Below are positions 8,725 to 44,316 of a DNA stretch of 63,284 nt, in pieces. The position numbers and the translations under genes are program-made. How positions within the stretch are numbered: position 1 is the stretch's first letter; every line of letters starts with the position of its first letter. Source of the DNA: Patescibacteria group bacterium (GTDB lineage Bacteria; Patescibacteriota; Patescibacteriia; S139-126; S139-133); the NCBI GenBank assembly GCA_049604715.1, contig JBMYTV010000006.1, positions 1 through 63,284 on the forward strand, written 5' to 3'. Below the pieces are notes generated by a model. The model had not been told where the DNA came from, did not search any database, and saw only the letters and a program-made list of their open reading frames with translations.

Positions 8725-8905
8725 AAAAAACGACCTTGCGTGAGTAGCTGGTCGTAAAACACAAAGCCCCACGCCAGCTGGATCTTGCGATCCCATACCA
8801 GTTTCCCGATATGACCCAACGAAGAGTCGCTGAACGTGAGGTTCAGTATCTTCGTTGGGTTTTAATACCATACCCATAGACACAAAATCTATGGGGTTAG
8901 GTATA
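8725..8905 (-). ncRNA. structured 5' leader or small RNA with an intrinsic terminator (riboswitch-like, unclassified)
   Basis: Read on the minus strand: a hairpin at 8866-8904; a long hairpin at 8815-8859 enclosing an inner hairpin at 8830-8846; a GGATC-GCAA-GATCC GNRA hairpin at 8780-8793; and a terminator stem at 8731-8754 followed by U6 (plus-strand A-run 8725-8730), ~45 nt upstream of the ATG at 8679. The segment AGCUGGCGU can alternatively pair with the terminator 5' arm ACGACCAGCU. Confidence 0.4.
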
Positions 8906-14349: not shown

Positions 14350-17300
14350 TTATTCTACGCTAAATGATCTGTCATCATTGATTGGACCATGAGAAACCTG
14401 CTTTCCGTCTGAATCGTAAATTCCATAGTAATTATTTTCTTTAACTCTTATTTTTAAACCTGTTTCACCATTATTCAGTAGATGCGGTCTGCCTTGATCC
14501 TTATATTTGCTATAGAAACTATTTCCATCTTGAGTATACTCAGATATAGTCCTACCGGCTCCATGCACCCTATGATGATATTTGATTGTCTCAGTAATAC
14601 TGTTTTTATTCACGTTTCGCCAACTACCCAATACCTGTTTTGGTGTCATTACTACACTTCTACCACCAGATACTACCATAGCGCCAAATCCTAAGCCAAT
14701 TTGACCGCCTCGCAAGCCTTGTTCGTAATCAGAAAGCTGTGAGAACTCAGAAGCAGTAATAGCATAGCCTTGAGCTGCTTCGGTAAATACTTTATTTGGA
14801 TCATTAGCCACATCACCAATAAAGCCTTTCCACTGATCTCCAAAATACGAAATTGAATCACCAATCTGTCTCAATGTTTGCACAGGATGAGCTACAGCCT
14901 GTACTGTTTGAACTACATTATCCCATGCAGTTTGAGCTCCTCCTTGCACAAAACCTGACCAAAACTCTCTTTCGGTAGTACCTGTAGGGTCTACGAAGTA
15001 TAATGGATTATTAAGTACATAAGAATAGCTATTCAGGGTCTGCGGATTGCTCAAATCTCTATTTAACACAATAACAGCTGGATCCTGTGACAAAAACCTT
15101 CCTGTAGCCCCAGGGTAATATCTAGCATTCATGTAGGTAAGTCCTGTATCACTATCATACATGTGCCCTGTAAACTTTCTCTGCTCATCAAAGTCAGTAT
15201 ACTGCTCATTAATACGCAAATCACCAAACGGATAGTAATCATGCTCTCCTACAATAGTCCCTGAGCTATCTGTCATGACACTACTACCACCAAGGTGGTC
15301 TGTGTGAATATAATACAATGTACTCGTACTATCAGTATACTCTACTGTTGCAATTAGTGCAGGTCCTGCATAAATATGCTTTGTCTTAGTTATTCCATCT
15401 GTATTATAGTACTGATTCACATACGTTGTGGTTGCGGTGTTAGAAACAAGTAATGCTCTTTGTCCTGCATGATCATACCCATAACTCGCAACTGTACTGG
15501 TTACCACACCTGGTGTATCAACAGCAAATCTAACCTTATCAACATACATTGTACTTGCTATATCGCTTACTACCGTCATACCCCCAATAGTACTAGTGCC
15601 TACATTAAACTCAGTTATAGGTATATCTAACTCATACCATGTATCAGCATCTAGCGCACCATCAGTATAATCACTAACCTCAATGTACCCTAGTGGCTGG
15701 TCATCGTCATCATACAACCTTACTTCTGGCTCTTGCCCTGCAGTTGAACCACCATGTATTGCTAGGCGCAACCTCTCCATATCATCGATATTAACACCGT
15801 CGTCCGTATGCATGTAGAGCCCCGCCCAAGCAGCATTGTATACAACTTTAATGGAATCATTTCCATCATACACTTCTTCAGATGAGTCGTATGTCACTGT
15901 ACTAGACCATGACCAATCCTCCCACCCTGAGGCTAAACTGTCATCATACACAAACAGTTCATCTGTACTAGTACTAGCAGACAAAGTACCCACTTCAACA
16001 AGTCTATTATCATAATCCCAAACAAAACTCTGTGTACCATCACTTGTCATATTGCCATTGTCATCATAAGTAATAGTCTGACCATTAATGCTTGTGGCAG
16101 CATGAGGATTTGCTTTACTCGTTCCTTGGTCCCCTTGGTATAAATAATTACCTATATCAGACTTATTGGTTATATTACCAAGCGCATTGTAGGTGTATGT
16201 ACGTGAATAATCTCCTGGACTGGTACTGGTAGCAAGCGTACTTGATGCTGAGGTAAGACGGTAAAGGTCATCGTATCCAAAATCTAATGTCTTATATGTT
16301 TGGGTATCTGATGTATCTACGATTTGTGTTATATTCCCAACATTATCGTAATCGTAGGATATATCCTGAATTGAGCTAACATTATTTCCATTACCTACTG
16401 TGCTAGTAGAATATGTAACGTAAACCGAATACTTCTTATTATCCAAACTAGGGCTACTCAATGGGTCAGGATAATTTGTTGTATACGTTTTGTATTTATA
16501 CAAACCTTGATTTGTTGCACCTGTATCATATTTAGGAGATATACTATCAGTTGTTTCAGATCCCCATATAGCTACAATATAGTCTGTATCAGTAATGTTG
16601 ACATTGCTATCTAAGTTAAGTGTTAGCCATTCATCACTTATTGAACTAGCCTCAGCCGTCTGTTCCTCAAAATCATATCCGCTTGTAGCATCATATAAAC
16701 CGTATTTAAAGTTCACACCACCAACTGTCAAATCTCCGTATACTGTAATACTCTCAGCAGTACCGCTTGCACCAGCAAACTTACTTCCTACTATTTTATC
16801 TCCAGCATACCCCCAACTACTTCCTATAGTGTCGTAACCAAAAGTCGGGTCCACAATCACGGGATAGGCTGCTTGCTCCAAAAACTTTTCTGGCACTGTA
16901 ACGCTCAATTTGTTTCTTGATTCATCTATACTAAGCTCTCCCCATGTCCAATCACCACCTGAATCTTTTATCTTGGGTCTGTAAATATGTAATACTTTTC
17001 CTGATTTATAGTTCTTTCCATTCAGTTTTGAATAGTCGCCACTATATTCACTCGAATACACAGCATATGAGCCCACTACATTTTCTGGTCGATACTCAAC
17101 TACCTTCCCTTCTTTATAGCATCGAGTTTCCGTACATCGTTCAAATTCGCTACTTTCTGCATACTGAACATCTAAAGCGGGTTGATAATAAAAATCTAGA
17201 TCGTGAGTGCTTATATTGAACTCAAATACATTAGTTTTTGGCTTCGTGCTTAATACAACATCAAGCTCAAAGGCACCGTCTGGATACTGATCAGTACCTT

Positions 17301-20300
17301 CTATTTCATAGAAGCGGTAAGAACTATCGTTGTCATTGAACTCCAACTTATCACTATTAAACTGGACTTGGTAACCTTCTGAGTCACTTTTAAATGCTAC
17401 AGGTTCGATCGTTAACTTTGCATCTCCATTCCATTTTTTTATTGTTAACTCAGGAGCCAGGCCTAACTTTGACACATTACCAACCGAAACTTGAATTGTA
17501 TCATCTATTGGATTCTTTAATGCTAACAGTCTGCCGTCATAGGAGAACCTACTAACAAAGTAATTGTTCTGAGAGTACCCATCTAACACACTTACTTGAG
17601 ACTGCGGCACTAAGAAGATAAGCTCATCATCTTGAGTGGACACAGGAGAATGATTGGCAATACTAACACTCGGCGCTAAAGCAGGCGTCATTGCTGTCGA
17701 CAATGATGCCATTGCCATCTCCATTCCACTTAAGGATGTAACTTTGTGTTTCAGTCTGTAAAGCTCATCTTTATCATAGGTGTTTGTTGTAGCAGTGCCA
17801 TTGGCATTATCCTGATATGTGATTTGTCCCAGTGGTGAATAGTCAAAATCTTCTACCACATTACTCCATGCTGAACCACTGTCAGAGCGCCACTGAATTG
17901 TCTCTGCAAGCCCTGTATTGTTATACGTATACTTCACACTACTACCATCTGGGTAATCAAGCTGAGTGATATTACCTAACCGGTCATAATTATACCCTGT
18001 ATCATATGAGCTGCCATCAATAGTCTTTACTTCTTCTGTTACACGGCTCATTGGATCATACATAAAGTTAACCACAGCTGCTGTTGATGTAGCACTACAG
18101 AGTAAGCCTTCGCCATACTGACACCAGTCATATCCATACGCTACTTCTGTACCTGCTTCACCTGTATAATTTTCTGTTAAGACGCGGTTTATATCATCAT
18201 ACGTGTAGTTAATTGTTTGGCTTTTTGGATCTAGTTTTGAGGTTAGATTGCTAGAATTGTCATATCCATACGTCCAAGTACCATAGTAACTGTCAGCTGA
18301 AGCATGTGAGTCTTGGGCTGTTTTGAGTCGTCCTAAACCATCATACGTAAAGTTGCGAACATTACTTGCAGCATCAGTGATTTTGGTAAGATTTTGTAGT
18401 CCATTCCATTCATAATTTGTAGTATAGGTACTGACGCCTTCATGTTCTTCTACTTTTATAAGGTTTTGATACGCATCATGGTGAAGATCTTTAGTATTAC
18501 TTTCAGTATCAGTTATGGCTGTCTCCCATTGATCATACGCATATGAAGTGGTTCCAACTGCATTGACTACTGTTTTAATTCTTTCTAACGCATCGTACGT
18601 GTAACTGGTTAACATATCTGCGGTCGTTGTTGCGGTAGTACGACTGGTACCGGTACTAAAATATGGCAAACTTTCAGATTTAACTTGTCCTTTCTTAGTG
18701 TACGTATAGTCTTGAGCTGCGTATGTATTGGCAGCTTCCACCTGACTTCGTGTCTGCACTGGCCTATCAAAACCATCAAGGTACGTATACTGCGTAGTTG
18801 TATCTGTACCATTACGATAATTAGTTTGCTCAATCACACGTGGGTTCGTACCATCTGTATAAGTATATGTTGTTACTGTTTCAAGTGTACTTGGCGTATC
18901 TGTATTTGGCTGTTTTTGTTCTTTGACACGATCAAGTGCATCAAAGCTTGTGGTAAAGCTATGGCCATTTGCATTTATAACCTTCTTTGGCTGACCGAGT
19001 GAGTAGTCGTAATAAAACTCTTGTGTCTGACTAAGTGGATTAGTTGAAGTTGCAACAAAGAGATCGTACTGATCATACGTATAGTTTGTAGCCTTATCTC
19101 GTGGATCTTTTTCTTGGGTTACTAAACCATAGTTATTATATGTTTTTTCGGTATCAATGTATGTCGTACTTTCTACCCAGCGCTCTTGTTTTGTTTCATT
19201 TCCTTTGTCTACATTTCCATGTGAAAGGTTATCATAATAGTACTTAGTTTCTGCGACTTTGTTACTACTTTGATCTTCTAGTGTCTCTGTCTTAGGTAAT
19301 CCTAGGATATATGGTGTTGAACTAGCTGCATAGGCAATAGTAGTAGTGAATTTATCTGTACCAGTATCTGTATATGTGCCGTTATCTAATCCTGTCACTT
19401 CACCATACGTGACTTGTGAAGTAAGGTTACCATTGGTGTTGTCATACGAATATGTAATTGCTGTATCTTTATGATCTGCATCACCATCATAGAGGAAGCT
19501 CACTTCTTGCGTTTTCTTCACAAAGTCGGCATCACTACCAAGATCGTAGTTTTCCCATTTGTATATAGACTTTTCGTATAAATTGTCACTATCATCATAC
19601 TTTTCTACCCGATACACTTTTCCTATTTTTGATCTATCGTCGCTATATTCTCCTGTAGAGGTAGCGGTGTCATTGCCTTGATGGTAGAAAGTCTTGGTGA
19701 TATTGCCGTTTGGATCAGTGGTTATTACCTCTTCAAAACCACCAAATTGCTTCTCGTACGGACTTTCAAAGTAATAATACCCACCTGCGTATTCATAGGT
19801 TGTGGTAGCATAATTACCAAGTCCGTCATCCACAGTATTCGTGTATACCGTGAAAAACATCTGCGGCATATTAGTGTTTAGCACATCACCTGAACCATCC
19901 CGATATGTTGGTACTGACTTATACTGAACATCAAAAGCAAGGCTGCTACTTTCCTCTACTTCTTTGAGTAAATCAGCTGGGTTTGGTTTACCATGGTAAA
20001 CCTCCTTATATATGTCATGACCTGTGTCCATGCTCCTTAAAAAGTCAACCAAGCCATCGCCATTTACGTCAACAATTCTCGTGCCAACATCCTTATTTGA
20101 CTCTACAATATACTCTGGAATTGAATACCCTGTATCTTGTGCCCAACCTGTACCATCTCCTTTGTTGATATAAACTTTTTTCGTTGCAGTACTGTTTATA
20201 TAGCTACTACGTATGATGTCAACCAAGCCATCGCCGTTAATATCATAAAGACGCACTCCTATATCATCTCCATTTTCGCTGAAGTGTTCAGGTATAGAAT

Positions 20301-22104
20301 AATTCGAATCATAGACCCAACCTGTACCATCTCCTTTGTTGATATATGTCTTATCAACTGTTGAACCATTAAAATGCTCACGTAGTAAATCAACAAGACC
20401 GTCGCCATTCACATCTGCGAAACGAACACCTGCATCCTCACCTCCATTAATTATGTACTCAGGTATTGAATAATTTGTATCTTCTGTCCATCCTGTGCCG
20501 TCACCATCATTGATATAAACTTTCTTAATGCTCTCTCCTGAATCACTCCTGAGTATATCAACTAACCCGTCGCCATTAATATCAATTAGCACTATTCCTG
20601 CATCTTTAAAATCTTCAGGTATTGTGTAATTTGTATCTTCTGTCCATCCTGTGCCGTCTTTATCATTAATATAGACTTTATTCACACTAGCTGAAGTGTC
20701 TTTACGTAAGATATCCACAAAGCCATCGCCGTTTACATCTGCCAATCGTACGCCTAATGAAGTCCCGTTTCCACCTTCTACAAAATATTCAGGTATTGTG
20801 TAATTTGTATCTTCTGTCCATCCTGTTTCATCGCCATTATTTATATAAACATCCTTATAGTTTGTAGTATCATCATGGCTGCGGATTAAATCGATAAGAC
20901 CATCACCATTCAAATCAGCTAATCTTAAACCAAAATCTACCCCATTTCCATTTGTAAAAACTTCTGGAATAGTATATCCTGTTTGTTCCTCCCAAGAGGT
21001 ATCTTTAATATTGTAAGAAAAGTTATTGCTAGGCAACGTGAGGGTATTTGTTAATTCATCCTGACCTGACTCAGTAATGCTCGTTAGGATTGAAGAATAA
21101 CCATTATCACCTGTTCCGAATCCTAGAGCATATTTACGAATCCAGGTTCCATTCACTTTGATCTGAATTTCATCAATACGATAGCTCGTAGTTACTGCAA
21201 AGCCTGTATCATACCTAGTAGCATCATCTGTACGTGATTCTCTTATAAATTCAACTGTATAAATACCATCAGTTGTACCGTGTCCTGTATACGTAATTTT
21301 ACTGGGATACACTTGATTACTATCGTGGTAGTATTCGTAGGAAATATAGTTGTCATTGGTGTCTCTTACTTCTTCTAGCAGCCACTTAAATGTACTCGTA
21401 CTGTAGTATTGCCGTGTACTGGTGCTTGCTCCAAATGTATAAACAGTACCGAGTTTATCAGTTACCGTCCAAGTATTATGATAAAATTCGTATTTAAGAA
21501 AATTGCCGTTATTCACCTTAGCTTGAAACTCTCCAGCTGTAGTCGTTGTTGCAAGTTCTCCTGAAAGTGATGAGTAAAAATATAAATCATCATCATACAG
21601 TTTATCTACGCCGTATTTGTTCAAGCGTTCGATAAATGGAATATTGAGCGTCCAGCCGTATCCAAAAACACTACTATGATCACCTCGGTGACTATGGTAA
21701 TTAATCGCCAGATCAGGCTGCATGTTATTACGTCCTGGAGGGATAATGAGCGGAAACTGGTATAAAAGAGCACCTGATGTCTCATCAGTCGATAATCGCA
21801 ACTGTGAAAAACCAGGACTTTCAATATCACCAACTCCTTGTTCCCCAAAGGACATAAGCGCCTGAGCGCCTTCTGGTTGAAGTTCTTGAGTATCAGCTAC
21901 TTCTGTTAACTCTTCGTTCTCTGGCTCTAAAGCAACTTCTGTATTTTCTTTTACTGTTGTGCTCTCAGAGTTTGATGCAGCTTCTGTGGTAATCGCTTCC
22001 TGACTTACTGTTTCTTCAGCAGCCAAGAGCAGTCCTGGCTGACCTAAGACAAACAAAAAAACCACCACCAAAAGTGCTAGCTTGTTGAACTTTTTTGTAT
22101 ACAT
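14350..22104 (-). CDS. secreted giant polymorphic toxin: SpvB-like domain + FG-GAP/VCBS repeats + RHS/YD-repeat shell + Rhs core + C-terminal toxin (TcB-TcC fusion-like)
   Basis: Signal peptide (KLALLVVVFLFVLGQPGLLLAAE). SpvB/TcB-type N-terminal motif (GALLYQFPLIIPPGRNNMQPDLAINYHS...GYGWTLNIP). Six 'NGDGLVD' FG-GAP-like repeats. Dozens of YD repeats (YTYDxxGRL type). Core end FTGHMYDSDTGLTYMNARYY...NPLYFVDPTGT at nt ~14980-15178. A 209-aa C-terminal domain follows. Confidence 0.9.
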   Translation of the reverse strand: MYTKKFNKLALLVVVFLFVLGQPGLLLAAEETVSQEAITTEAASNSESTTVKENTEVALEPENEELTEVADTQELQPEGAQALMSFGEQGVGDIESPGFSQLRLSTDETSGALLYQFPLIIPPGRNNMQPDLAINYHSHRGDHSSVFGYGWTLNIPFIERLNKYGVDKLYDDDLYFYSSLSGELATTTTAGEFQAKVNNGNFLKYEFYHNTWTVTDKLGTVYTFGASTSTRQYYSTSTFKWLLEEVRDTNDNYISYEYYHDSNQVYPSKITYTGHGTTDGIYTVEFIRESRTDDATRYDTGFAVTTSYRIDEIQIKVNGTWIRKYALGFGTGDNGYSSILTSITESGQDELTNTLTLPSNNFSYNIKDTSWEEQTGYTIPEVFTNGNGVDFGLRLADLNGDGLIDLIRSHDDTTNYKDVYINNGDETGWTEDTNYTIPEYFVEGGNGTSLGVRLADVNGDGFVDILRKDTSASVNKVYINDKDGTGWTEDTNYTIPEDFKDAGIVLIDINGDGLVDILRSDSGESIKKVYINDGDGTGWTEDTNYSIPEYIINGGEDAGVRFADVNGDGLVDLLREHFNGSTVDKTYINKGDGTGWVYDSNYSIPEHFSENGDDIGVRLYDINGDGLVDIIRSSYINSTATKKVYINKGDGTGWAQDTGYSIPEYIVESNKDVGTRIVDVNGDGLVDFLRSMDTGHDIYKEVYHGKPNPADLLKEVEESSSLAFDVQYKSVPTYRDGSGDVLNTNMPQMFFTVYTNTVDDGLGNYATTTYEYAGGYYYFESPYEKQFGGFEEVITTDPNGNITKTFYHQGNDTATSTGEYSDDRSKIGKVYRVEKYDDSDNLYEKSIYKWENYDLGSDADFVKKTQEVSFLYDGDADHKDTAITYSYDNTNGNLTSQVTYGEVTGLDNGTYTDTGTDKFTTTIAYAASSTPYILGLPKTETLEDQSSNKVAETKYYYDNLSHGNVDKGNETKQERWVESTTYIDTEKTYNNYGLVTQEKDPRDKATNYTYDQYDLFVATSTNPLSQTQEFYYDYSLGQPKKVINANGHSFTTSFDALDRVKEQKQPNTDTPSTLETVTTYTYTDGTNPRVIEQTNYRNGTDTTTQYTYLDGFDRPVQTRSQVEAANTYAAQDYTYTKKGQVKSESLPYFSTGTSRTTATTTADMLTSYTYDALERIKTVVNAVGTTSYAYDQWETAITDTESNTKDLHHDAYQNLIKVEEHEGVSTYTTNYEWNGLQNLTKITDAASNVRNFTYDGLGRLKTAQDSHASADSYYGTWTYGYDNSSNLTSKLDPKSQTINYTYDDINRVLTENYTGEAGTEVAYGYDWCQYGEGLLCSATSTAAVVNFMYDPMSRVTEEVKTIDGSSYDTGYNYDRLGNITQLDYPDGSSVKYTYNNTGLAETIQWRSDSGSAWSNVVEDFDYSPLGQITYQDNANGTATTNTYDKDELYRLKHKVTSLSGMEMAMASLSTAMTPALAPSVSIANHSPVSTQDDELIFLVPQSQVSVLDGYSQNNYFVSRFSYDGRLLALKNPIDDTIQVSVGNVSKLGLAPELTIKKWNGDAKLTIEPVAFKSDSEGYQVQFNSDKLEFNDNDSSYRFYEIEGTDQYPDGAFELDVVLSTKPKTNVFEFNISTHDLDFYYQPALDVQYAESSEFERCTETRCYKEGKVVEYRPENVVGSYAVYSSEYSGDYSKLNGKNYKSGKVLHIYRPKIKDSGGDWTWGELSIDESRNKLSVTVPEKFLEQAAYPVIVDPTFGYDTIGSSWGYAGDKIVGSKFAGASGTAESITVYGDLTVGGVNFKYGLYDATSGYDFEEQTAEASSISDEWLTLNLDSNVNITDTDYIVAIWGSETTDSISPKYDTGATNQGLYKYKTYTTNYPDPLSSPSLDNKKYSVYVTYSTSTVGNGNNVSSIQDISYDYDNVGNITQIVDTSDTQTYKTLDFGYDDLYRLTSASSTLATSTSPGDYSRTYTYNALGNITNKSDIGNYLYQGDQGTSKANPHAATSINGQTITYDDNGNMTSDGTQSFVWDYDNRLVEVGTLSASTSTDELFVYDDSLASGWEDWSWSSTVTYDSSEEVYDGNDSIKVVYNAAWAGLYMHTDDGVNIDDMERLRLAIHGGSTAGQEPEVRLYDDDDQPLGYIEVSDYTDGALDADTWYELDIPITEFNVGTSTIGGMTVVSDIASTMYVDKVRFAVDTPGVVTSTVASYGYDHAGQRALLVSNTATTTYVNQYYNTDGITKTKHIYAGPALIATVEYTDSTSTLYYIHTDHLGGSSVMTDSSGTIVGEHDYYPFGDLRINEQYTDFDEQRKFTGHMYDSDTGLTYMNARYYPGATGRFLSQDPAVIVLNRDLSNPQTLNSYSYVLNNPLYFVDPTGTTEREFWSGFVQGGAQTAWDNVVQTVQAVAHPVQTLRQIGDSISYFGDQWKGFIGDVANDPNKVFTEAAQGYAITASEFSQLSDYEQGLRGGQIGLGFGAMVVSGGRSVVMTPKQVLGSWRNVNKNSITETIKYHHRVHGAGRTISEYTQDGNSFYSKYKDQGRPHLLNNGETGLKIRVKENNYYGIYDSDGKQVSHGPINDDRSFSVE
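20030..20960 (-). repeat. intragenic tandem coding repeats (FG-GAP-like modules) with near-identical nucleotide stretches
   Basis: aggtattg(a/t)(a/g)taatttgtatcttctgtccatcctgt occurs at 20461-20500, 20617-20658 and 20791-20826. ccaacctgtaccatctcctttgttgatata occurs at ~20146 and ~20317. Confidence 0.8.
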
Positions 22105-35049: not shown

Positions 35050-36159
35050 TTAAACTTCAATCTGTTCTAAGTACTTAAGTAATATATCATAAAATGTTTG
35101 CAATGACTCTATACTTACCCATTCACCATTATTATGCCAGTCTGCTCCATCCGGCCTGGTAATAAGCACGGGCATCTCTGCGCTTGAGAAGAAACGAGCA
35201 TCTGAGCCACCTGCCTCCACACCAAAGTTCACCTCACGACCTAGAATACCTTCAGCTACGCTCTTGTATTGCTGTAAATATTCGTCATTAAAATCAGTAA
35301 AACAAATATCACCTTGTGCTTGTATTTCAAAGTCAGCATCATGATCCTTAACAACCTTTTTGATAATTTCATACCACTCATCAAATGAGTGCTTTTCTGT
35401 AAGACGAACATCAAAGTATGCTTCGCATTTATCTGGCACTTGGTTGATAGCATTACCAGCCTGTATCTTTCCTATGTTGACTGATGGACGCCAATCATCC
35501 TCTGACTCTGGTTTTGGAAACTGTTTTTGTAAATCCTTATACAGTAAACACACTTTATTAATCGCATTGTCACCAAGCCACGGACGAGAGCCATGAGCAG
35601 CAGTCCCGTGGAGTGTTGCCTTGAAAAATATAAGCCCCTTTTGGGATGTGATAATAGCATCCATAGCACCACCATCAGGAACAATCACAAGCTTTGCCTT
35701 ATACCCCTGCTCGACTAAATACTGAGCTCCATTTTGCCCACCTACTTCTTCATCTGATGTAAGCATAAGCCCTAGCTTGAGCTCAGGTCTAGTCTTGTGA
35801 ACCTTTTGAAAGGCAAGAATACTTGCCGCAACTGAACCCTTCATATCCGCAGCACCACGGCCATACAATTTATCACCTTGTATACGCGGCACAAACTCCC
35901 TCTGCTCAGCTTCAATAACATCCAAATGTCCTGCGAGTAACACATCGAATTCTTTTGTATCGTGCGTTGATGCTACAAGTGACGGTTTATCATTTTGCAT
36001 GTATTTGCTAATTGTAAAACCATTTTCACTCAAATAATTCTCACAAAAATCAACCACATTTTGAAGATGGTGCGGCTTTTGTGCTGTTGACTGAAATAGA
36101 ATAAGCTCTTTTGTAAGCTCAACTATCTGTGTGTGTGGATTGTCTGTTTGAAACATCAT
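35050..36159 (-). CDS. M20-family metallopeptidase/deacylase (ArgE/DapE/LysK-like), paralog a
   Basis: LAGHLDVIEA, GRGAADMKGSVAA and TSDEEVGG motifs. About 50% identical by eye to 40581..41690. Confidence 0.8.
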   Translation of the reverse strand: MMFQTDNPHTQIVELTKELILFQSTAQKPHHLQNVVDFCENYLSENGFTISKYMQNDKPSLVASTHDTKEFDVLLAGHLDVIEAEQREFVPRIQGDKLYGRGAADMKGSVAASILAFQKVHKTRPELKLGLMLTSDEEVGGQNGAQYLVEQGYKAKLVIVPDGGAMDAIITSQKGLIFFKATLHGTAAHGSRPWLGDNAINKVCLLYKDLQKQFPKPESEDDWRPSVNIGKIQAGNAINQVPDKCEAYFDVRLTEKHSFDEWYEIIKKVVKDHDADFEIQAQGDICFTDFNDEYLQQYKSVAEGILGREVNFGVEAGGSDARFFSSAEMPVLITRPDGADWHNNGEWVSIESLQTFYDILLKYLEQIEV

Positions 36160-36170
36160 AAAGCGTGAGG

Positions 36171-37655
36171 TTATTTTGAATAAATGGATTTTAGGTACTC
36201 GATATAGTATTGGGGCTGCATAGCGTCACCAGTTGCATTCCTTAGCAAAGTCTCTGGTGCATACCGTTTACCGTGCTGCCAAATGTGACTACTAAACCAG
36301 TCACGTATAGATGTAAAATCGCCCCCAGCAAAGGCCTGGTCATACTCTGGGTACTCAAGTGTATATGCTTTCCACATTTGTGCAGCCTGTGCAGTACCTA
36401 GGACATAGTTTGGGAAATACCCAAGCATTCCATATGGCCAATGCACATCTTGAAGACATCCTTCACTAAGTGTTTTTGGCTCAGTACCAAAGTTCTTTTT
36501 CATATCTGCATCCCACCTCTTTGGCAAGTCTTCCATAGATAAAGCCCCATCAAGCAGATCTCGTTCAATCTGATAACGAATTGCAACATGTATGATATAA
36601 CCAACCTGGTCACTATTAACACGATTAAGTGAGGGTTGTATGCTTCGTGCATATTTTGCAACCTGCTTTGCGTCAATGTCTTTAGCACGCGGTTCAAACT
36701 CAGCAAGTTCACGAAGTGCATACTCCCAAAATCCATCGCAAAGCATAATATAACTATCAAACAAACGTGCTTGTGATTCATCAATACTAACAGACACAGC
36801 GCGGTCAAGATCTGTATCAGAGTATTCATCAAGTACATACTGGTCATACAAACCATGACCCATTTCATGTATTGCTATTTGAATTACTTTAAACAAGTCA
36901 TCATTTCCAAGTGGAACAAATAGTCTTGTGTCGTGTTTTGACACTTTACGCTCACGTCCATGAACAGCTGTACCTAGCACTCCGCGAGTAAAGTCAAACC
37001 CCATGCCAGCAAGTAGTGTTTCTAAGTAAGCTTTTTTGGTATGTGGATCAAGTTTTATACCCTTTAACGGGTCCGCTACTACCTCACTATGATTTTGAAC
37101 AAGATTCTGCGCAACAGGAAGTAGCTGAGAAAATAGCACCTCAACATCAGCGTAGGTGGTGCCTTCTTCATACACATCAAGTAACACATCATATACAGGA
37201 CGACGAGAGTCAATGATCTGGGCATACTCCCGACTCATAGCAATCATCTCTTCAAAATACGGTGCATACATTCTAAAATCATTTGCTTGTTTTGCTTTTG
37301 TCCATTGTTCAAATCCTTTGGCTTTAATCTCTGTATACTGTTGCACAAACTCTGCAGGTAGGCGAGCTTGTTTGTGATAACTCCGCATTGAGAGCTCTAC
37401 TCCGCGACGATCCGCCTCTGATAGATTTTCACGCTGATCATATAAATCATGCAACGCGCTCACATACTCTGATGATGTGAGAACCTCGTGCATCATACGC
37501 TCAAGCATACCAAACTCATGCGAACGCCTAGGCAGGGCCTGCTCAGGAAGTGCTTGCTCGCGATCCCAAAGCAAGACATCACTAATACTAGCTAGTTTCT
37601 TATACTGCTGTAGTGTTGATCTATATATTTGTAAACTTTGTTGTAGCGGTGACAT
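36171..37655 (-). CDS. M32 carboxypeptidase (Taq-type)
   Basis: HEMGHGLY zinc motif, a DVHW motif, and length and overall pattern typical of the M32 family. Confidence 0.8.
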   Translation of the reverse strand: MSPLQQSLQIYRSTLQQYKKLASISDVLLWDREQALPEQALPRRSHEFGMLERMMHEVLTSSEYVSALHDLYDQRENLSEADRRGVELSMRSYHKQARLPAEFVQQYTEIKAKGFEQWTKAKQANDFRMYAPYFEEMIAMSREYAQIIDSRRPVYDVLLDVYEEGTTYADVEVLFSQLLPVAQNLVQNHSEVVADPLKGIKLDPHTKKAYLETLLAGMGFDFTRGVLGTAVHGRERKVSKHDTRLFVPLGNDDLFKVIQIAIHEMGHGLYDQYVLDEYSDTDLDRAVSVSIDESQARLFDSYIMLCDGFWEYALRELAEFEPRAKDIDAKQVAKYARSIQPSLNRVNSDQVGYIIHVAIRYQIERDLLDGALSMEDLPKRWDADMKKNFGTEPKTLSEGCLQDVHWPYGMLGYFPNYVLGTAQAAQMWKAYTLEYPEYDQAFAGGDFTSIRDWFSSHIWQHGKRYAPETLLRNATGDAMQPQYYIEYLKSIYSK

Positions 37656-37762
37656 ATGAATATACTTACTATTGTACCATTAATACCTTTGAGTAACTCA
37701 AAAACATTATTAGTAGGCTCAGCTTTGCTGAGCCGTTTTATGTTAATTAGACAGAGATACAC

Positions 37763-39043
37763 TTATGACCATTTTCGATAGAACTCATCCGAGACGAAGA
37801 AAACCGGACAGACTCCGCATTCTACATGGTTATTAGCGCCAACGTTGTGCATGGTATTACCATCGCCCTTGTGCATTGCGCGTCTACCAAAGTAGTATGT
37901 GGTATCTTTACCAGTACGCATCTGACGAAGCTCCAAAGCAAAGTGATCACTTCCAACCTGGTTAGGCGTAGCAAAGCGCTCTTGAACATTTGACTGCGCC
38001 AACTGGTTACCGGCCTGCGTTGCAGCTCGCAAATCGCGAATCGACGGTTTGAGATTTAACCCATCACCACCAAATTCATTGGTGGGTTTCATGATGATAT
38101 TTTCCACACCCCCTAATCCAGGTAGAATATCACTTATGAAATAGTGATTCACAACCCAGGAAGGGACAACGCCATCAAGATGACCGGTATGAATCATCGA
38201 GCTTTTTTGCCCAATAAAAAACCATCTTGGATCGGGTGAGCAATTTACGTCAACCGGATTCTTAAAAAAGAAATCGACATAGCGCTCATATACCTCTGCA
38301 CCAGCCGCCTCAATATCAAGTGGCAGCGCTCGCCAGTGAATGCCGCGGATGTAAACCTTGGTACTGTTATCCCTATAATACAACCGTTTTCCTTCGCGAC
38401 GAATTACTTCAAATCCTATAACCGGCGTGCCAAAATAATGCTCCAAGGCAAAATGATCATGCCTTGTTTTTTGCTTTTCCGGTGCCACATCAACAACCAC
38501 ATCAATACCTTCAGTATCACCTTCAGGAAAAAGTACCTCCCTGACTTCCTTGATGTATTCATCCAGTGATGCGTGTCGCCAAAACGGACTTAAATCAGCC
38601 AATGCAGGGAACTCTTCTCTCCATGCTTCAGCCAAAACCAGTAGAAACATTTGCCACCCGGAAACATTGATATGATACTCAAGCATCAATGTCTTCCACG
38701 GCTTCTCTTTCTCTGGACGAACCACTGTATGATCCAAAGTGGCTGTTAGTACTTCTGGACCAGGGTGGTCTATCATATTTGTTTCAGGATATGGACTTTC
38801 TGCCCAATGCTGACGAATAAACTCATCTTGTCCGACAACATCCAAAACACCATTACCTTGTGCATTCATCCGTTCAGCTAAACTACGCCGAAGCAAAACG
38901 GGTGTAAAACCAAAGATATCCCAGGGGAATCTTGATGGGTCAACATTTATCATCCGGCAAGCGCGATCACGTACGCGCAAAAATGCGGCTTCAGATGATA
39001 TGTCTGCGAATAGTTCTTCGAAGAACCGATGATTCATACTCAT
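37763..39043 (-). CDS. ATP-grasp-like ligase (glutathionylspermidine-synthase / circularly-permuted ATP-grasp type)
   Basis: IIMKPTNEFGGDGL (ATP-grasp K-P...G-G-x-G motif) and a C-terminal ...RRAMHKGDGNTMHNV pattern. By-eye assignment. Confidence 0.45.
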   Translation of the reverse strand: MSMNHRFFEELFADISSEAAFLRVRDRACRMINVDPSRFPWDIFGFTPVLLRRSLAERMNAQGNGVLDVVGQDEFIRQHWAESPYPETNMIDHPGPEVLTATLDHTVVRPEKEKPWKTLMLEYHINVSGWQMFLLVLAEAWREEFPALADLSPFWRHASLDEYIKEVREVLFPEGDTEGIDVVVDVAPEKQKTRHDHFALEHYFGTPVIGFEVIRREGKRLYYRDNSTKVYIRGIHWRALPLDIEAAGAEVYERYVDFFFKNPVDVNCSPDPRWFFIGQKSSMIHTGHLDGVVPSWVVNHYFISDILPGLGGVENIIMKPTNEFGGDGLNLKPSIRDLRAATQAGNQLAQSNVQERFATPNQVGSDHFALELRQMRTGKDTTYYFGRRAMHKGDGNTMHNVGANNHVECGVCPVFFVSDEFYRKWS

Positions 39044-39105
39044 GCTACTACCTCGATCTTTTGAGGAATTGAGTTTAAAGGGCTCTTATGTATAACCCCT
39101 ACCAA

Positions 39106-40266
39106 TTAAAGACCCAGCTCAGCAGCGAGCCGGTTATGTGCTTCCATGTACGGATTTCTTCCTGCTTGAAAATCGCGCATCATTCGCATTGCACCATTTT
39201 CTTGATTTTTAACTTGCTGTATCAATGCTGCGTGCTGCGGTTGATACTGAAGTTCATTCATAAATGGTGCTACAAAACGAATCAACCCTTCCAGCGCATC
39301 GCCAAGACATCCTTCCTTACCGCGGTTAAAGGGATTGTAGAAATGAGCATCCATATTCTGCAATCCAAGTGTCGCAATTCCTATATTAACGCGCAGTTTC
39401 TCATCATGTTTAAAGTCATCTTCTGGAACGTCCAAATTAACACCTTCTACAAAAAAGGCATGAAAGAGTGATGCAATAGTTGCTGTCAAAGTCTGCGCTT
39501 CAGACGGCAAGCCAGGCAAATCACAAATGCGGCTTTCCGCAGTATAAATACTAAATCTGTTAAAAAACCACAAACGCGTCCATTGCTGTGCTACTTTATG
39601 CTTTAAAGCATACTCCATCTTCTCCAGAAAACTTTTAACATCCTGAACTTCAGGGGGTATAAAACGAACCAACTGAAACGACAACCACCTCTGCAAACGC
39701 ATTGAATGGTATGAATAACCACACTCAGTGTCATACGAATTTGCAGAGATCGCTGCTAAAAGCGGGGACAGCATATCCATCATCTTCAAAACTCTGATAC
39801 CACGATCAGTAAGCTCTTTCACTCCGAAATGAACGTGGAGAGAAAAAGCATTTGCAGCTTCTAATACTTGTGGTTTGCGATTCTTCAACAGTTCATACCC
39901 CTCGTCAGCAGGTATTCCAGCGAGATGACTCCCAGGTAGCCATGCTACTGGTATCATATTGTATCTGTGCTTCAGCCCTGCTTTGAACAACTGCTCATAC
40001 AAACAGCGAATGCCTTGCATTGACTGTCCGTTCCCTGTCCAAACACTCGGTGTCTTACCTTCTATGGTATGAAACCGCCATTCTGGACATGCTGTCACGC
40101 AGTTACTGCTGTTAATCACTTCCATCACCATCCTTTGACCATCCTCATCCATAGGGGTAATGACTCGTCCATCAGGACTAACAAATGTTACAAAGGGCGC
40201 TTCTATTTCACCGGCAAGCGTGCCTAAAACGTCACTTCCAATAAATTCCTTTCCAGGTAGTGCCAT
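39106..40266 (-). CDS. glutamate-cysteine-ligase family 2 (YbdK-type carboxylate-amine ligase), paralog a
   Basis: AFSLHVHFGVKELTDRGIRVLKMMDMLSPLLAAISANSY matches the GCS2 signature (lHVHvGv....P.LlAlsAnSP). Confidence 0.65.
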   Translation of the reverse strand: MALPGKEFIGSDVLGTLAGEIEAPFVTFVSPDGRVITPMDEDGQRMVMEVINSSNCVTACPEWRFHTIEGKTPSVWTGNGQSMQGIRCLYEQLFKAGLKHRYNMIPVAWLPGSHLAGIPADEGYELLKNRKPQVLEAANAFSLHVHFGVKELTDRGIRVLKMMDMLSPLLAAISANSYDTECGYSYHSMRLQRWLSFQLVRFIPPEVQDVKSFLEKMEYALKHKVAQQWTRLWFFNRFSIYTAESRICDLPGLPSEAQTLTATIASLFHAFFVEGVNLDVPEDDFKHDEKLRVNIGIATLGLQNMDAHFYNPFNRGKEGCLGDALEGLIRFVAPFMNELQYQPQHAALIQQVKNQENGAMRMMRDFQAGRNPYMEAHNRLAAELGL

Positions 40267-40355
40267 ATTTGTATCTCCTATAATTATTTCAACGTGCTAT
40301 TTATTAAACTTTTTTGTTTTTATACAGACACGCATGTGTAGTATGTATACCCTAT

Positions 40356-40390
40356 AAAAACAAAAATCTCGGATCCCTTTTGGGTCCGAG
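40356..40390 (-). terminator. rho-independent terminator ~200 nt downstream of M20 paralog b
   Basis: Minus strand: ctcggaccc-aaaa-gggatccgag followed by atttttgttttt. Confidence 0.7.
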
Positions 40391-40580
40391 TACGTTTTCC
40401 TTAATTTTGTATAGAAACGTTTACACTGACCCAACTACCGGCATAATCAAAATAACCAAGACCAAAATAATAGCTGTCTTAGCTACGATCATGTTGTATG
40501 TAGTGGGTTTTGTAAGCAATTTCGTTTCCATACAAAGCTTAGGATAAAGCATGTATGTAGCTTTGTCAAATTAAACTTAG

Positions 40581-41690
40581 CTAGTTTTCCACAGAGTGGC
40601 AATCTAATAAAAACTTGCTTAGAACCTCATAATACTGATATAACGACTCAAGTTCAATATATTCTCCACCATTATGGATGTTATCACCAACTGGATTACT
40701 TATAATTACGGGCATGCCACGACTTGAGAAATACCGAGCATCAGAAGCACCTGCTTCAACACCAAACCGCACCTCTCTTCCAAGGATAAGCTCGTTTGCC
40801 TTTTTAAACAGTTGTAAATACGGGTCATTAAAATCAGTAAAACACATATCGCCTATGATCTCTATCTCCACCTCTACACCACGCGCGTCACAAATACTAG
40901 TAATTATTCCAACCCACTCTTCAACTTCATGCTCCTCAGTGAAACGCATATCAAGTCCAGCAGTACAGAGCGCGGGTACTTTATTAACAGCTGTACCTGC
41001 ACTTATAGTGCCCATATTAATAGACGGCTTCCAATCTTCTTCAGCAGTAGGACCAGGAAATGCTCTCACCAAATCACCATTAAGACCCATCATGATAGCA
41101 ATAGCATTTTTACCAAGCCACGGACGTGATCCATGCGCTGACTCACCTTTGGCAGTTAATTTAAACCTTATAACCCCTTTTTGAGCAGTAACAATACGAT
41201 CAATATCACCACCATCTGGAACAACAACGACATCTGCTGTGTATTCTTCAGCCTCAAGAAGATATCCCACACCATCAGGACCACCAATCTCTTCATCACT
41301 TGTTAGCATCAATCCTATACTATGATCTGGATAGTTTTGACCATGCTGCTTCATAGCCATCATCAAAGCCGCAACTGGCCCTTTCATATCAAGTGCACCG
41401 CGTCCATATAATTTACCATCACTGATCTTGGGTACAAAGTCTGATTGATTTGCACCTACAACATCAACATGCCCATTAAGCAGAACATTAAAATGTTTTG
41501 TTTTTTTGTTGCTCACAACAATTGATGGGACATTATTGTGCTCATATCGTCTTATGAATAAACCACTCTCCTCAAAAAACTGCGCACAAAAATCTACAAC
41601 ATTATTTAAATGATGTGGCTTATCAGCAGTTGATTGAAACACAATCAACTCCTGGGTCAAGGTTTTAATGTCTTGATATATTTTGTTCAT
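40581..41690 (-). CDS. M20-family metallopeptidase/deacylase, paralog b
   Basis: LNGHVDVVGA, GRGALDMKGPVAA and TSDEEIGG motifs. Confidence 0.8.
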   Translation of the reverse strand: MNKIYQDIKTLTQELIVFQSTADKPHHLNNVVDFCAQFFEESGLFIRRYEHNNVPSIVVSNKKTKHFNVLLNGHVDVVGANQSDFVPKISDGKLYGRGALDMKGPVAALMMAMKQHGQNYPDHSIGLMLTSDEEIGGPDGVGYLLEAEEYTADVVVVPDGGDIDRIVTAQKGVIRFKLTAKGESAHGSRPWLGKNAIAIMMGLNGDLVRAFPGPTAEEDWKPSINMGTISAGTAVNKVPALCTAGLDMRFTEEHEVEEWVGIITSICDARGVEVEIEIIGDMCFTDFNDPYLQLFKKANELILGREVRFGVEAGASDARYFSSRGMPVIISNPVGDNIHNGGEYIELESLYQYYEVLSKFLLDCHSVEN

Positions 41691-41779
41691 AGGCTCATTG
41701 TTATGTATCTCTTCACCTTTGTCTATGCTTGATAAACAAAACTGAAGAGATGGCGTCGATTTTCGACGCCAGATGAAAA

Positions 41780-42931
41780 TTAAGAAGTAAACGTATTAAA
41801 TGCGTACACACGGATAGCATTGTGATCTGCCAGCTGCAGCGAACGAATACGCTCAGCACCGGTTGCGGCACCATCAAGAATAGTTGTCACAAAATCTGTA
41901 CATGGAAGCGCATCATACACATCCACTACTATACCAACAAGCTGGCGCAAGAACATCTCAATCTGTACGCTTTCATTTTGAAAGTTCTGCGTTACAGCAT
42001 CACGCCAATTACCAGACCAATTCGCAAGTTGGATATTCTGCTGATCTAGCATTGAGGGTTCGAATTGCTCGGGATAAAAATCTGGGCGCTGAAAATGAAA
42101 AATAGACATCAGTCGAACCATGAGCTCAGCAATATGCTCTATATGCTGAGGTAAGAACGACATATCTCCCATCGCCAATTCCAATCGATAAAACTCATTA
42201 GTTCCACCATTTGGAATTTGCTTAATCCTTATCCACGGCCACCCTTTGTGTACTATGCTTTCCGGCTTACTTCCTTGAAACGGCATGCCAAATTTGTTGA
42301 TAAATTCATCATAATCATCTAGCGAATCTATCCACAAAGGCTTGATCGTGTGATCAACAAACCGCCAATACATACCACGTTCGCAATGCCCAGTGTCACT
42401 GTACGACGACAACAGCGCCATAAAAGGATTAATAAAAAAGTTAGCGATATTGAACATACGAACAATGTCACTAGCTGGTATCGCAACACTTACATGAAGC
42501 GCAGCATACCTGTTGAACCTGATATTTGCCTGTCGTTTCTGTATAAGCATGTTTTGCCATGCTTCCTGATAGTATCCACGGCCCGCTACCTTTGACACAT
42601 ACTCCTCTGTTACCTCAAAATCAGAATCAAAAATGCCTGAAAATGGTACTACCATAATACCAGTACGATTGAACAGTTCGCGTAATCGGTTTTGAGTCTC
42701 TGTTATAAAGCCAGCAATAGAGTTGAACTCAGTGAAAACGTCGCTTTGGATCTCTGCCTGCAAAGCAAGAAATTCGTAATCAAGCCAATCAGGGCGCTCA
42801 TCTGCATTAAACTGACACAATCGTTCAAACGATAGCAGTTTCCCATTTTGGTCAGTTAGAATACCCTCAAACTCAAATCCGTGATTCAAAATCTGATCTG
42901 GATTTTCCAGACGCGTACGTTGCATTTGCAT
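41780..42931 (-). CDS. divergent GCS2-type carboxylate-amine ligase, paralog b (start revised to MQMQRTR)
   Basis: GFEFEGIL near the N-terminus and YAALHVSVAIPASD...FMALLSSYSD (degenerate GCS2 signature). AAGGAG lies 6 nt upstream of the ATG at 42929-42931. Confidence 0.5.
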   Translation of the reverse strand: MQMQRTRLENPDQILNHGFEFEGILTDQNGKLLSFERLCQFNADERPDWLDYEFLALQAEIQSDVFTEFNSIAGFITETQNRLRELFNRTGIMVVPFSGIFDSDFEVTEEYVSKVAGRGYYQEAWQNMLIQKRQANIRFNRYAALHVSVAIPASDIVRMFNIANFFINPFMALLSSYSDTGHCERGMYWRFVDHTIKPLWIDSLDDYDEFINKFGMPFQGSKPESIVHKGWPWIRIKQIPNGGTNEFYRLELAMGDMSFLPQHIEHIAELMVRLMSIFHFQRPDFYPEQFEPSMLDQQNIQLANWSGNWRDAVTQNFQNESVQIEMFLRQLVGIVVDVYDALPCTDFVTTILDGAATGAERIRSLQLADHNAIRVYAFNTFTS

Positions 42932-43152
42932 ACGTATCTCCTTTTTAATCATGTATGAATATTTCGATGTACTTTTATGTGCTACTATAAATTCTTTAAA
43001 CTTGAAGCAGTACACAAAAAAACTGACCTGTGGCCAGTTGCGCTTTCATCTAAATTTGGGTGATTATACGAAAAAGCTGCTAGCCACGTGCCAGATTAAA
43101 GAAGTAATAAAAGAAAAACCAATTGTTGGATAGCATTTGTTTCATAATGCAT

Positions 43153-43181
43153 GTACTATAACGATGCGTCTCCATATTGTC
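43153..43181 (-). promoter_or_regulatory. sigma-70-type promoter for GCS2 paralog b
   Basis: Minus strand: TTGACA (43176-43181), 17-nt spacer, TATAGT (43153-43158). Confidence 0.5.
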
Positions 43182-43196
43182 AAACATCTTTTTCCA

Positions 43197-43987: not shown

Positions 43988-44026
43988 ATTTGTCTCCTTT
44001 CGACATATGATTATATGGTAATGAAC

Positions 44027-44316
44027 AAAAAACTTCCATCCTTGTATACATACCAAATAGATACGTATACAAGGACGGAAGCTTTACTCCGCGGTACCAC
44101 CTTGTTTATGTAAAAAAATATCCGCCAGCAGCGGATACATATTACATCACTTTACTGACTCAGTCTCTACGTGAGTAGACGACATCAGATGTAGTTGATT
44201 ACGGGCTACAAACCCCGAGCTATCACACCACACTCTGTATACACACAGTATGTAGCAATAACCATCCATAATCCGCAGACCCAACCCTAAAGCTTTTGAC
44301 TTTAGGATCTGCAGGG
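44027..44316 (-). promoter_or_regulatory. T-box riboswitch leader (tRNA-sensing transcription antiterminator)
   Basis: Minus strand reads ACAAGG-UGGUACC-GCGGAG-UAAAG-CUUCCGU-CCUUGU, i.e. the conserved T-box sequence GGUGGUACCGCG (44089-44105) folded as helix A1 (ACAAGG/CCUUGU), a 7-nt UGGN bulge and helix A2. The competing terminator CUUCCGUCCUUGUAUAC/GUAUACAAGGAUGGAAG has 17 bp including one G-U and is followed by U6 (44027-44081). Stem III candidate at 44119-44137. Upstream helices contain ACAGAGUG...GGUGUGA (AG-bulge/distal-loop-like) and a CCGUAA (F-box-like) element. Confidence 0.85.

Follow-up and report, generated by a model that had tools for sequence, protein, structure and literature searches.

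A leader RNA on the minus strand of a Patescibacteria contig is very probably a transcription-attenuating T-box riboswitch specific for tRNA-Trp that controls the gene of a 251-amino-acid carboxylate-amine ligase. As judged by sequence comparison, this ligase belongs to a tRNA-Trp regulon found across CPR bacteria. The leader occupies positions 44316-44027 (minus strand) of the window, by which we mean the whole 63,284-nucleotide stretch of DNA analysed here, and lies between an HtrA-like gene (stop at ~44370) and an ATG at 43987.

The leader and its transcription switch

The features of the leader and of the gene behind it are as follows, in the direction of transcription:

44324-44319, minus strand: possible -10 box TATAAT, with no good -35 box
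44314-44273, minus strand: truncated Stem I, with lower helix CUGCAGA/UCUGCGG, a U-G pair, cap helix CCUAAAG/CUUUAGG and cap loop UCAAAAG
44283-44281, minus strand: predicted specifier UGG (Trp), inside the 5-nt 3′ bulge U-UGG-G (44284-44280)
44263-44218, minus strand: Stem II, helix GGUUAU/AUAGCU closed by UGC/GUG
44209-44191, minus strand: Stem IIA-type hairpin GUAG-CCCGUAAUCAA-CUAC, with the F-box-like CCGUAA at 44204-44199
44188-44155, minus strand: linker hairpin CUGAUGUC...UGAGUCAG (consensus of relatives ACCGAUGUCGG...GAGUCGGU)
44153-44106, minus strand: purine string AAAGUG (44153-44148), then Stem III (44147-44108), then AA
44105-44069, minus strand: antiterminator, with A1 ACAAGG/CCUUGU, 7-nt bulge UGGUACC (44099-44093) and A2 GCGGA/UCCGU
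44101-44090, minus strand: T-box sequence GGUGGUACCGCG, from reading of the sequence and the RF00230 alignment
44081-44027, minus strand: intrinsic terminator, with a stem of ~22 bp (44081-44033), loop UAUUU and U6 at 44032-44027
44026-44020, minus strand: GUUCAUU, the window copy of a GUUCNUU motif
43998-43994, minus strand: Shine-Dalgarno (SD) sequence AGGAG, preceding the ATG at 43987
43987-43232, minus strand: coding sequence of the 251-aa compact GCS2/YbdK-like carboxylate-amine ligase
43228-43203, minus strand: terminator after the ligase stop codon, an 11-bp stem and U-run
43183-43155, minus strand: promoter-like TTGACA-17-TATAGT (11/12 match), preceding the next gene

Sequence reading and folding placed the T-box sequence, the antiterminator and the AGGAG with its ATG exactly where the initial annotation had put them. 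Both antiterminator helices are fully paired in the window (A1 6/6, A2 5/5). The competing terminator with its U6 also stands as described, but not its size: the stem is ~22 bp with three G-U pairs rather than 17 bp with one, reaches 26 bp with an AAAG/UUUU extension, and has a predicted dG of -34 kcal/mol. Its 5′ arm contains the 3′ strands of A2 and A1, and all 6/6 A1 3′ bases lie inside the arm, so the two structures are mutually exclusive. The expression platform is thus a hairpin with U6 and not an SD sequestrator, and the SD sits ~29 nt past the U-tract, outside the terminator hairpin. The fold of the 297-nt leader has a z-score of -9.4 against dinucleotide shuffles. Of 34 distinct upstream regions, 20 contain the GUUCNUU motif 20-35 nt before the start codon; it occurs in both of the leader classes described below and is possibly an anti-SD element. 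A promoter scan of the window listed no minus-strand promoter at the leader; TTGACA at 44369-44364 aligns with the TTGACT promoter of a related locus, L009.

Standard covariance models overlook this RNA. At its gathering score, RF00230 found no T-box anywhere in the window. Applied to a 601-nt region alone, the same model returned 39 bits (E = 3.6e-7) against a gathering score of 93; the RF00230 search that the initial annotation had proposed thus recovers the element by E-value but falls short of the threshold. The alignment is clean in the 3′ half and deletes 89 model positions of Stem I. The low score reflects the shortened Stem I with its missing tRNA-elbow platform. The gathering score was likewise not reached by any of 14 related loci, members with a long Stem I included. 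A profile built from the related leaders (nhmmer) matches the window at 44294-44017 with E = 3.8e-24. By sequence, the leader is a genuine T-box but not the textbook example it had been called: the T-box leader and its switch are present, whereas Stem I is cut short and carries no platform.

Comparison with relatives covered ~110 loci with ligase homologues, some of which are one organism recovered from different metagenomes, so that locus counts from this set are lower bounds over loci that are not phylogenetically independent. Such homologues are scarce and belong to CPR bacteria. In at least ~45 loci the ligase gene is preceded, at a distance of 100-350 nt, by a canonical T-box core, and the nhmmer profile recovers at least ~50 with a homologous leader directly upstream of the same ~250-aa ligase family. 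The question raised earlier, whether orthologous ligase genes also carry T-boxes, is thereby answered for at least ~50 CPR/Patescibacteria loci. Named hosts are Komeilibacteria, Torokbacteria, Staskawiczbacteria, Nealsonbacteria and metagenome-assembled genomes labelled Saccharibacteria. The housekeeping beta-CASP RNase encoded in the window is ~50% identical to Peregrinibacteria / Gracilibacteria proteins.

The switch itself is conserved. Of 40 distinct leaders, 37 have an intact A1 and all 40 an intact A2, and a stable hairpin with a U-run follows in 39. The 3′ strand of A1 lies inside the 5′ arm of the terminator in 38 of the 40, so the objection that the alternative pairing might not be conserved falls away. 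L009 retains the features of the window with compensatory changes. At least ~20 other loci of the ligase family carry a second type of leader with no visible specifier. In the literature covered, outside which many subscription papers fell, we found no work joining T-boxes with CPR, Patescibacteria, GCS2-type ligases or gamma-glutamyl chemistry.

Stem I, the specifier and the discriminator base

The distal AG bulge and T-loop platform are absent from the window Stem I, which is capped by a 7-bp helix and a 7-nt loop. Relatives share this plan: a lower helix of 5-7 bp, then a U:R pair, a cap helix whose length varies, and a 3′ bulge of 5 nt, N-UGG-G. The trailing G of the window bulge, U-UGG-G, corresponds to a conserved purine position. 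When 34 distinct sequences were aligned in register, GAAA standing in for the cap interiors, pairing was seen in 99.4% of cells, a percentage (though not the double substitutions) that is inflated by picking rows through their best-register parse. Eight of the ten pairs vary on both sides. The covariation score was 0.745 versus 0.27 for shuffled alignments, and slid registers were only 26-58% paired. The window keeps 10/10 of these pairs.

UGG-G never changes across leaders of the truncated class. The base before it can be U, G, A or C, which excludes specifier frames of the form NUG. A long, canonical Stem I persists in L014 and L033, where the corresponding segments read GAA-UGG-A and GAAA-UGG-A, and in L087, L065 and L015 the UGG sits in an apical loop. 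From these comparisons the specifier is UGG, predicted to be read by the CCA anticodon of tRNA-Trp.

The remaining leader domains are recognizable, with local departures in the window. In many relatives UGA and GAG flank the lower helix of Stem I; a check for this K-turn pair found it not obvious in the window or in L009. Stem II ends in a GNNA tetraloop in relatives (UGC-GNNA-GUG) and in an inserted hairpin in the window. Its six helix pairs are 96-100% paired among relatives with two to three pair types each, and beneath them lie conserved non-Watson-Crick positions (U.C, R.G and G.G). The stem of the IIA hairpin covaries through UCCU/AGGA, CCCC/GGGG, UCUC/GAGA, GUUC/GAAC and GUAG/CUAC around a conserved CCGUAAYCA loop; the F-box of N. 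farcinica is CCGUCA (PMC7583486). The Stem IIA that Rfam places in the window (CGU-CUACUC-ACG) was rejected, as neither Rfam's own alignment of L009 nor the covarying CCGUAA hairpin agrees with it. A search for the IIB pseudoknot and the S-turn gave no convincing partner or register. Farther downstream, the purines and Stem III of the window fit the published discriminator motif 5′-RRRxG-Stem III-AA-3′ (PMC7583486). A terminator-like hairpin with U7 (44138-44118) is nested within Stem III.

The antiterminator bulge provides a second contact with the tRNA. The window carries UGGU, and among the leaders listed the variable base gives UGGC in 27 and UGGU in 14. UGGU had initially been taken to imply a tRNA with discriminator A73. 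That deduction does not hold, because UGGU is common in Trp T-boxes: in TBDB, 46% of them carry U here opposite a G73 tRNA (PMC7778990). Relatives tell the same story. Genes for tRNA-Trp(CCA) adjoin the ligase in at least six loci, well ahead of any other tRNA gene in that position; of six such ligase-adjacent genes, five encode G73 and one A73, and in L028, L033 and L079 a G73 tRNA-Trp occurs together with a UGGC bulge. A search of the window for tRNA genes found none.

The ligase family and its tryptophan context

The target gene is, as first described, a GCS2-like ligase and not an aminoacyl-tRNA synthetase, a recognized biosynthetic gene or a transporter. The protein matches Pfam GCS2 (PF04107) at 31.2 bits against a cut-off of 21, over profile positions 1-143 of 291, that is, the N-terminal half. 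Among NCBIfam models the highest score is 38.9 bits, where the cut-offs are 176-409, which places the protein outside the curated YbdK/GCL families. An AlphaFold model built on a 10-sequence alignment has a pLDDT of 90.8, and Foldseek gives YbdK (1TT4/1R8G) as the best match of this model (TM 0.69, E = 6e-8, 18% identity); glutamate-cysteine ligases and glutamine synthetases come next. No PDB sequence was matched in a profile search with the ligase. The predicted glutamine synthetase-like fold and the Pfam match thus resemble those of YbdK/GCS2 carboxylate-amine ligases, whereas the length (~250 aa versus ~370 aa), the missing sequence-level PDB match and the low NCBIfam scores set the protein apart. 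The invariant E-x-E, E...Q-E, H and E-F-R presumably correspond to the predicted metal/ATP-site pattern of this fold.

An exhaustive HMM search of 1.84 billion representatives recovered only 264 clusters, almost all of 245-300 aa. The family is small, separate and compact, and its members are not truncated YbdK proteins, contrary to the impression given by the single sequence. Tryptophan makes up four of the 251 residues, two of them invariant. Such a content is odd in a protein made under tryptophan shortage, and this observation speaks against a role of the ligase in tryptophan supply.

In the window the ligase stands alone. The terminator reported directly behind the gene was recovered at 43228-43203. 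Together with the promoter-like site of the next gene it indicates that the T-box unit is monocistronic, so the ligase is transcriptionally separate from the ligase/peptidase cluster that it had been thought to head. The subsequent minus-strand genes encode a distant GCS2-like protein, an M20 peptidase, a 386-aa GCS2 protein, a 426-aa protein of unknown function, an M32 carboxypeptidase and a second M20 peptidase. No hydrolase lies within the T-box unit of the window.

Among relatives the surroundings of the ligase point to tryptophan. Genes for TrpRS above the TIGR00233 trpS cut-off lie near it in at least 18 loci, and in L102 a TrpRS gene is part of the T-box unit itself, after the ligase and an M20 peptidase. 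In L015 the leader heads a series of genes for a HAD protein, PfkB-IGPS (TrpC), TrpB, TrpA, the ligase, a class-I glutamine amidotransferase (GATase) and a GNAT protein. In L010 the leader stands before the genes for a dehydrogenase, matched best by the tryptophan dehydrogenase ScyB (E = 8e-87), and then an aminotransferase. A chorismate-mutase-methyltransferase fusion neighbours the ligase in at least 12 loci.

The other recurrent neighbour is a hydrolase. Directly after the ligase on the same strand stands an AstE/AspA-type deacylase in at least ~52 loci, a GGACT gamma-glutamyl(amine) cyclotransferase in at least nine, a class-II GATase closest to EgtC in at least eight, a class-I GATase/peptidase C26 in at least six, and an M20 peptidase in at least four to six; one lineage has a peptidase S51 downstream of the ligase after a gap. 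These six unrelated folds all cleave amides of acidic acyl groups, which suggests a module that ligates and then cleaves. By analogy with EgtA/EgtC and the Puu pathway, the ligase and its amidohydrolase may form such a module for tryptophan supply, the likeliest handle being of the gamma-glutamyl type. The pairing of a ligase with a gamma-glutamyl-removing amidohydrolase recalls EgtA-EgtC of ergothioneine synthesis, down to the EgtC-like class-II GATase; unlike that system, the partner here is swapped among six folds. We also considered the class-I GATase as TrpG with the ligase as a substitute for TrpE. This idea was rejected: the trpG models score only 36 bits against a cut-off of 121, and partners in other lineages are not GATases.

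Proposed mechanism, alternatives and significance

The proposed switch would work as follows. The CCA anticodon of tRNA-Trp would pair with the UGG specifier in the 3′ bulge of the platform-less Stem I, and Stem II and the F-box hairpin would probably support this codon pairing, as in actinobacterial T-boxes with a truncated Stem I. If the tRNA is uncharged, its free 3′ end would pair with the UGGU of the bulge and stabilize the antiterminator, so that RNA polymerase could pass the 22-bp terminator and transcribe the ligase gene. With charged tRNA-Trp this stabilization is not possible, and the terminator would form. Read-through would thus require uncharged tRNA-Trp, and the ligase would be induced as charging of tRNA-Trp drops. 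Several observations sit uneasily with this reading. RF00230 scores are low in the window and in relatives alike, and the window shows no evident promoter or K-turn and has no tRNA gene. In addition, rapid capture of the tRNA by transcriptional T-boxes is generally considered to depend on the Stem I platform (PMC7583486), which is missing here.

What the ligase does for the cell is a more tentative matter. It may use ATP to join an acidic acyl group, likeliest gamma-glutamyl, to tryptophan or a precursor, and a partner amidohydrolase may then remove the group, although we would put this chemistry forward as a working idea and not as the expected outcome. The hydrolase would be the gene next to the ligase in relatives and, in the window, probably an M20 peptidase of the adjacent cluster. 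Together the two enzymes could enlarge the tryptophan pool through tag-and-release, as a salvage or trapping step. Counting against this explanation, a ligase and a hydrolase alone amount to a futile cycle, and the partner hydrolases are chemically heterogeneous. With similar reserve, we suggest that the ligase and its interchangeable amidohydrolase could be a hitherto unrecognized tryptophan salvage or trapping pathway that is the main tRNA-Trp-sensing output in CPR bacteria, under two RNA devices that go unannotated today. One device would be the transcriptional T-box without an elbow-binding platform, possibly helped by the hairpin-plus-U-tract of Stem III as a pause site. The other, in other lineages, would be the ~250-nt leader with a core like the T-box discriminator and no Stem I.

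Three other readings compete with parts of this account. It is conceivable, if on balance doubtful, that tRNA-Trp is sensed as a general starvation signal, tryptophan being the scarcest amino acid, and that the ligase and amidohydrolase form a stress, peptide-modification or small-molecule module. No tryptophan pathway is known to use a glutamine synthetase-fold ligase, the partner hydrolases are diverse, the ligase is itself relatively rich in tryptophan, the window gene adjoins a general peptidase cluster (M20, M32, M20), and the at least ~20 loci with the other leader show no visible specifier. However, the tRNA-Trp, TrpRS, trpC-B-A (L015) and chorismate-mutase-fusion contexts occur far above chance, and every other target of this T-box type is tryptophan-specific. 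A specifier other than UGG is very hard to sustain by comparison. The bulge segment GUUGGG does hold overlapping triplets, among them UUG (Leu) and GGG (Gly), and GGR is conserved as well (GGG in the truncated class, GGA in L014 and L033). Yet the variable base before UGG leaves no NUG frame, UGGC and UGGU bulges imply G73 or A73 whereas bacterial tRNA-Gly has U73, and the genomic context is that of tryptophan throughout. The two candidates of the initial annotation fare no better: ACU(A), for Thr, lies in the stem and loop of the IIA/F-box hairpin, the stem of which covaries in relatives, and the UCAAAAG cap loop differs in both sequence and length among them.

The window element could also be a decaying or translationally acting relative of the functional leaders, with expression set by a constitutive terminator or by masking of the SD through GUUCAUU, but we consider this improbable. 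It is true that no members diverge more than the window and L009, that the family profile gives the window 83 bits where most members reach 130-200, and that this local match excludes Stem I; the insertion in Stem II, the apparent absence of the K-turn flanks seen in relatives and the conserved anti-SD-like motif fit such a reading too. Against decay, the ten Stem I pairs, UGG-G, the F-box loop, the purine string, the A1 and A2 helices and the terminator overlap are all intact in the window, L009 keeps the same features with compensatory changes, and the distance of ~29 nt between U-tract and SD leaves the SD clear of the terminator hairpin.

On the preferred reading, a tRNA-Trp-specific transcriptional T-box, the RNA belongs to a known kind of riboswitch. 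It shares much with the transcriptional Trp T-boxes of Firmicutes and Chloroflexi that govern trpS, the trp operon and rtpA/anti-TRAP (RF00230): UGG followed by a purine, a UGGN bulge with U or C, Stem II, the F-box, a purine-flanked Stem III and an antiterminator opposed to an intrinsic terminator. The predicted logic is the same, with uncharged tRNA-Trp switching expression on. The CPR clade differs in its truncated Stem I, with neither AG bulge nor distal-loop platform and sub-threshold RF00230 scores, and in its main target, a compact GCS2-like ligase that usually comes with an amidohydrolase in place of aminoacyl-tRNA synthetases, trp genes, a transporter or anti-TRAP. The lack of an elbow platform is instead shared with those ileS T-boxes of actinobacteria (Mycobacterium, Nocardia; 6UFG, 6UFM) whose Stem I is intermediate or ultrashort. 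In both groups the specifier lies in a side bulge or an apical loop (the latter in L087, L065 and L015), and both retain Stem II and the IIA/B F-box element, which are presumably essential. The actinobacterial switches are translational SD sequestrators that respond to Ile, whereas the CPR leaders place a long hairpin and U-tract before the SD and read Trp. What appears to be new is the use of a plain intrinsic terminator with a Stem I that has no platform, together with a new regulatory target.

These leaders extend T-box regulation to the CPR/Patescibacteria. Because the Rfam threshold misses the whole clade, the switches are currently unannotated. They also offer a natural counter-example to the platform requirement of transcriptional T-boxes, one in which the kinetics of tRNA capture become testable in a new system. 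The specifier gives an orphan ligase family and its partner hydrolases a physiological context, that of low Trp-tRNA charging. CPR bacteria are thought to live by scavenging amino acids, and the ligase/hydrolase module is a testable lead to a new route of tryptophan supply.

A second leader class upstream of the ligase family

At related loci without a T-box, a leader of a second conserved type, ∼250-300 nt long, lies immediately 5′ of the same family of compact GCS2-like ligases. This leader class lies outside the window and comprises the five fetched loci listed here and ∼15 further ones, with locus counts being lower bounds.

Second-class leaders at related loci
L088, 2707-3007: second-class leader
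L037, 5708-6007: second-class leader
L018, 5722-6013: second-class leader
L023, 5697-5993: second-class leader
L001, 4614-4901: second-class leader

In these leaders, an outer helix, CCAAAGCA/UGCUUUGG, surrounds a core, AAAUUGG-UGGUGG-GGCUUUGC...GCAAAGUCC-UAGUUU, that resembles the T-box discriminator. A terminator-like hairpin follows 3′ of the core, nested within a long-range helix, AGCCAUCAA/UUGAUGGCU. Neither a Stem I nor a specifier is present in the second leader, and an Rfam search with it returned no matches at E <= 1. This leader may represent either a riboswitch not yet described or a derivative of the T-box.

Both leader classes share a GUUCNUU motif 20-35 nt 5′ of the start codon. 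The window copy lies at 44020-44026 (minus strand), and of 34 distinct relatives, 20 have the motif at the corresponding position. Many loci also carry a hairpin, CCAGCAC...GUGCUGG, 5′ of the motif, and at the related locus L033 this 3′ module of hairpin and GUUCNUU is located after a true T-box. Because the motif is complementary to AAGGAG, it may mask the Shine-Dalgarno sequence.

A hairpin and U-tract within Stem III

Stem III of the window's T-box contains a GC hairpin followed by U7 (44118-44138, minus strand), which a terminator scan classed as terminator-like. The same arrangement is found at six related loci (L009, L016, L063, L081, L092 and L111). It could act as a programmed pause, giving a T-box whose truncated Stem I lacks the distal, tRNA-elbow-binding platform time to capture its tRNA.

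Neighbouring genes and other features of the window

Downstream of the T-box and its ligase gene lie the following features:

42931-43183, minus strand: promoter match and leader region of the next gene (383 aa, distant GCS2-like)
35050-43015, minus strand: dense ligase/peptidase cluster (distant GCS2-like, M20, 386-aa GCS2, 426-aa, M32 carboxypeptidase and second M20 genes)

The 383-aa gene has a strong promoter match of its own and a leader of ∼220 nt that is conserved with the related locus L009. With its pyrimidine-rich tract and two terminator-like hairpins (43094-43080 and 43039-43021), this leader may be a separate attenuator. A family search with the 426-aa protein of the cluster gave no match. 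LOOT RNA (RF03000), on the minus strand at 8780-8903, is the sole Rfam family to pass its threshold anywhere in the window, scoring 93.7 bits (gathering score 46.4; E = 1.2e-16). At 14350-22104, the same strand carries a very large open reading frame, 2584 aa in length.

Other targets of homologous tryptophan T-boxes

At two related loci, homologous tRNA-Trp T-boxes control other genes:

L015, 1191-7539: Trp T-box operon
L010, 4333-4061, minus strand: Trp T-box; controlled genes 4041-1854

The L015 operon encodes a fusion of a PfkB-family sugar kinase to IGPS (TrpC), a HAD phosphatase, TrpB and TrpA, with TrpD, TrpE and TrpF all missing from the operon. This gene content suggests an unusual entry to the late tryptophan pathway. 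The L010 T-box controls a ScyB-like tryptophan dehydrogenase and a class I/II aminotransferase, a pairing which suggests that this lineage salvages tryptophan from indole-3-pyruvate.
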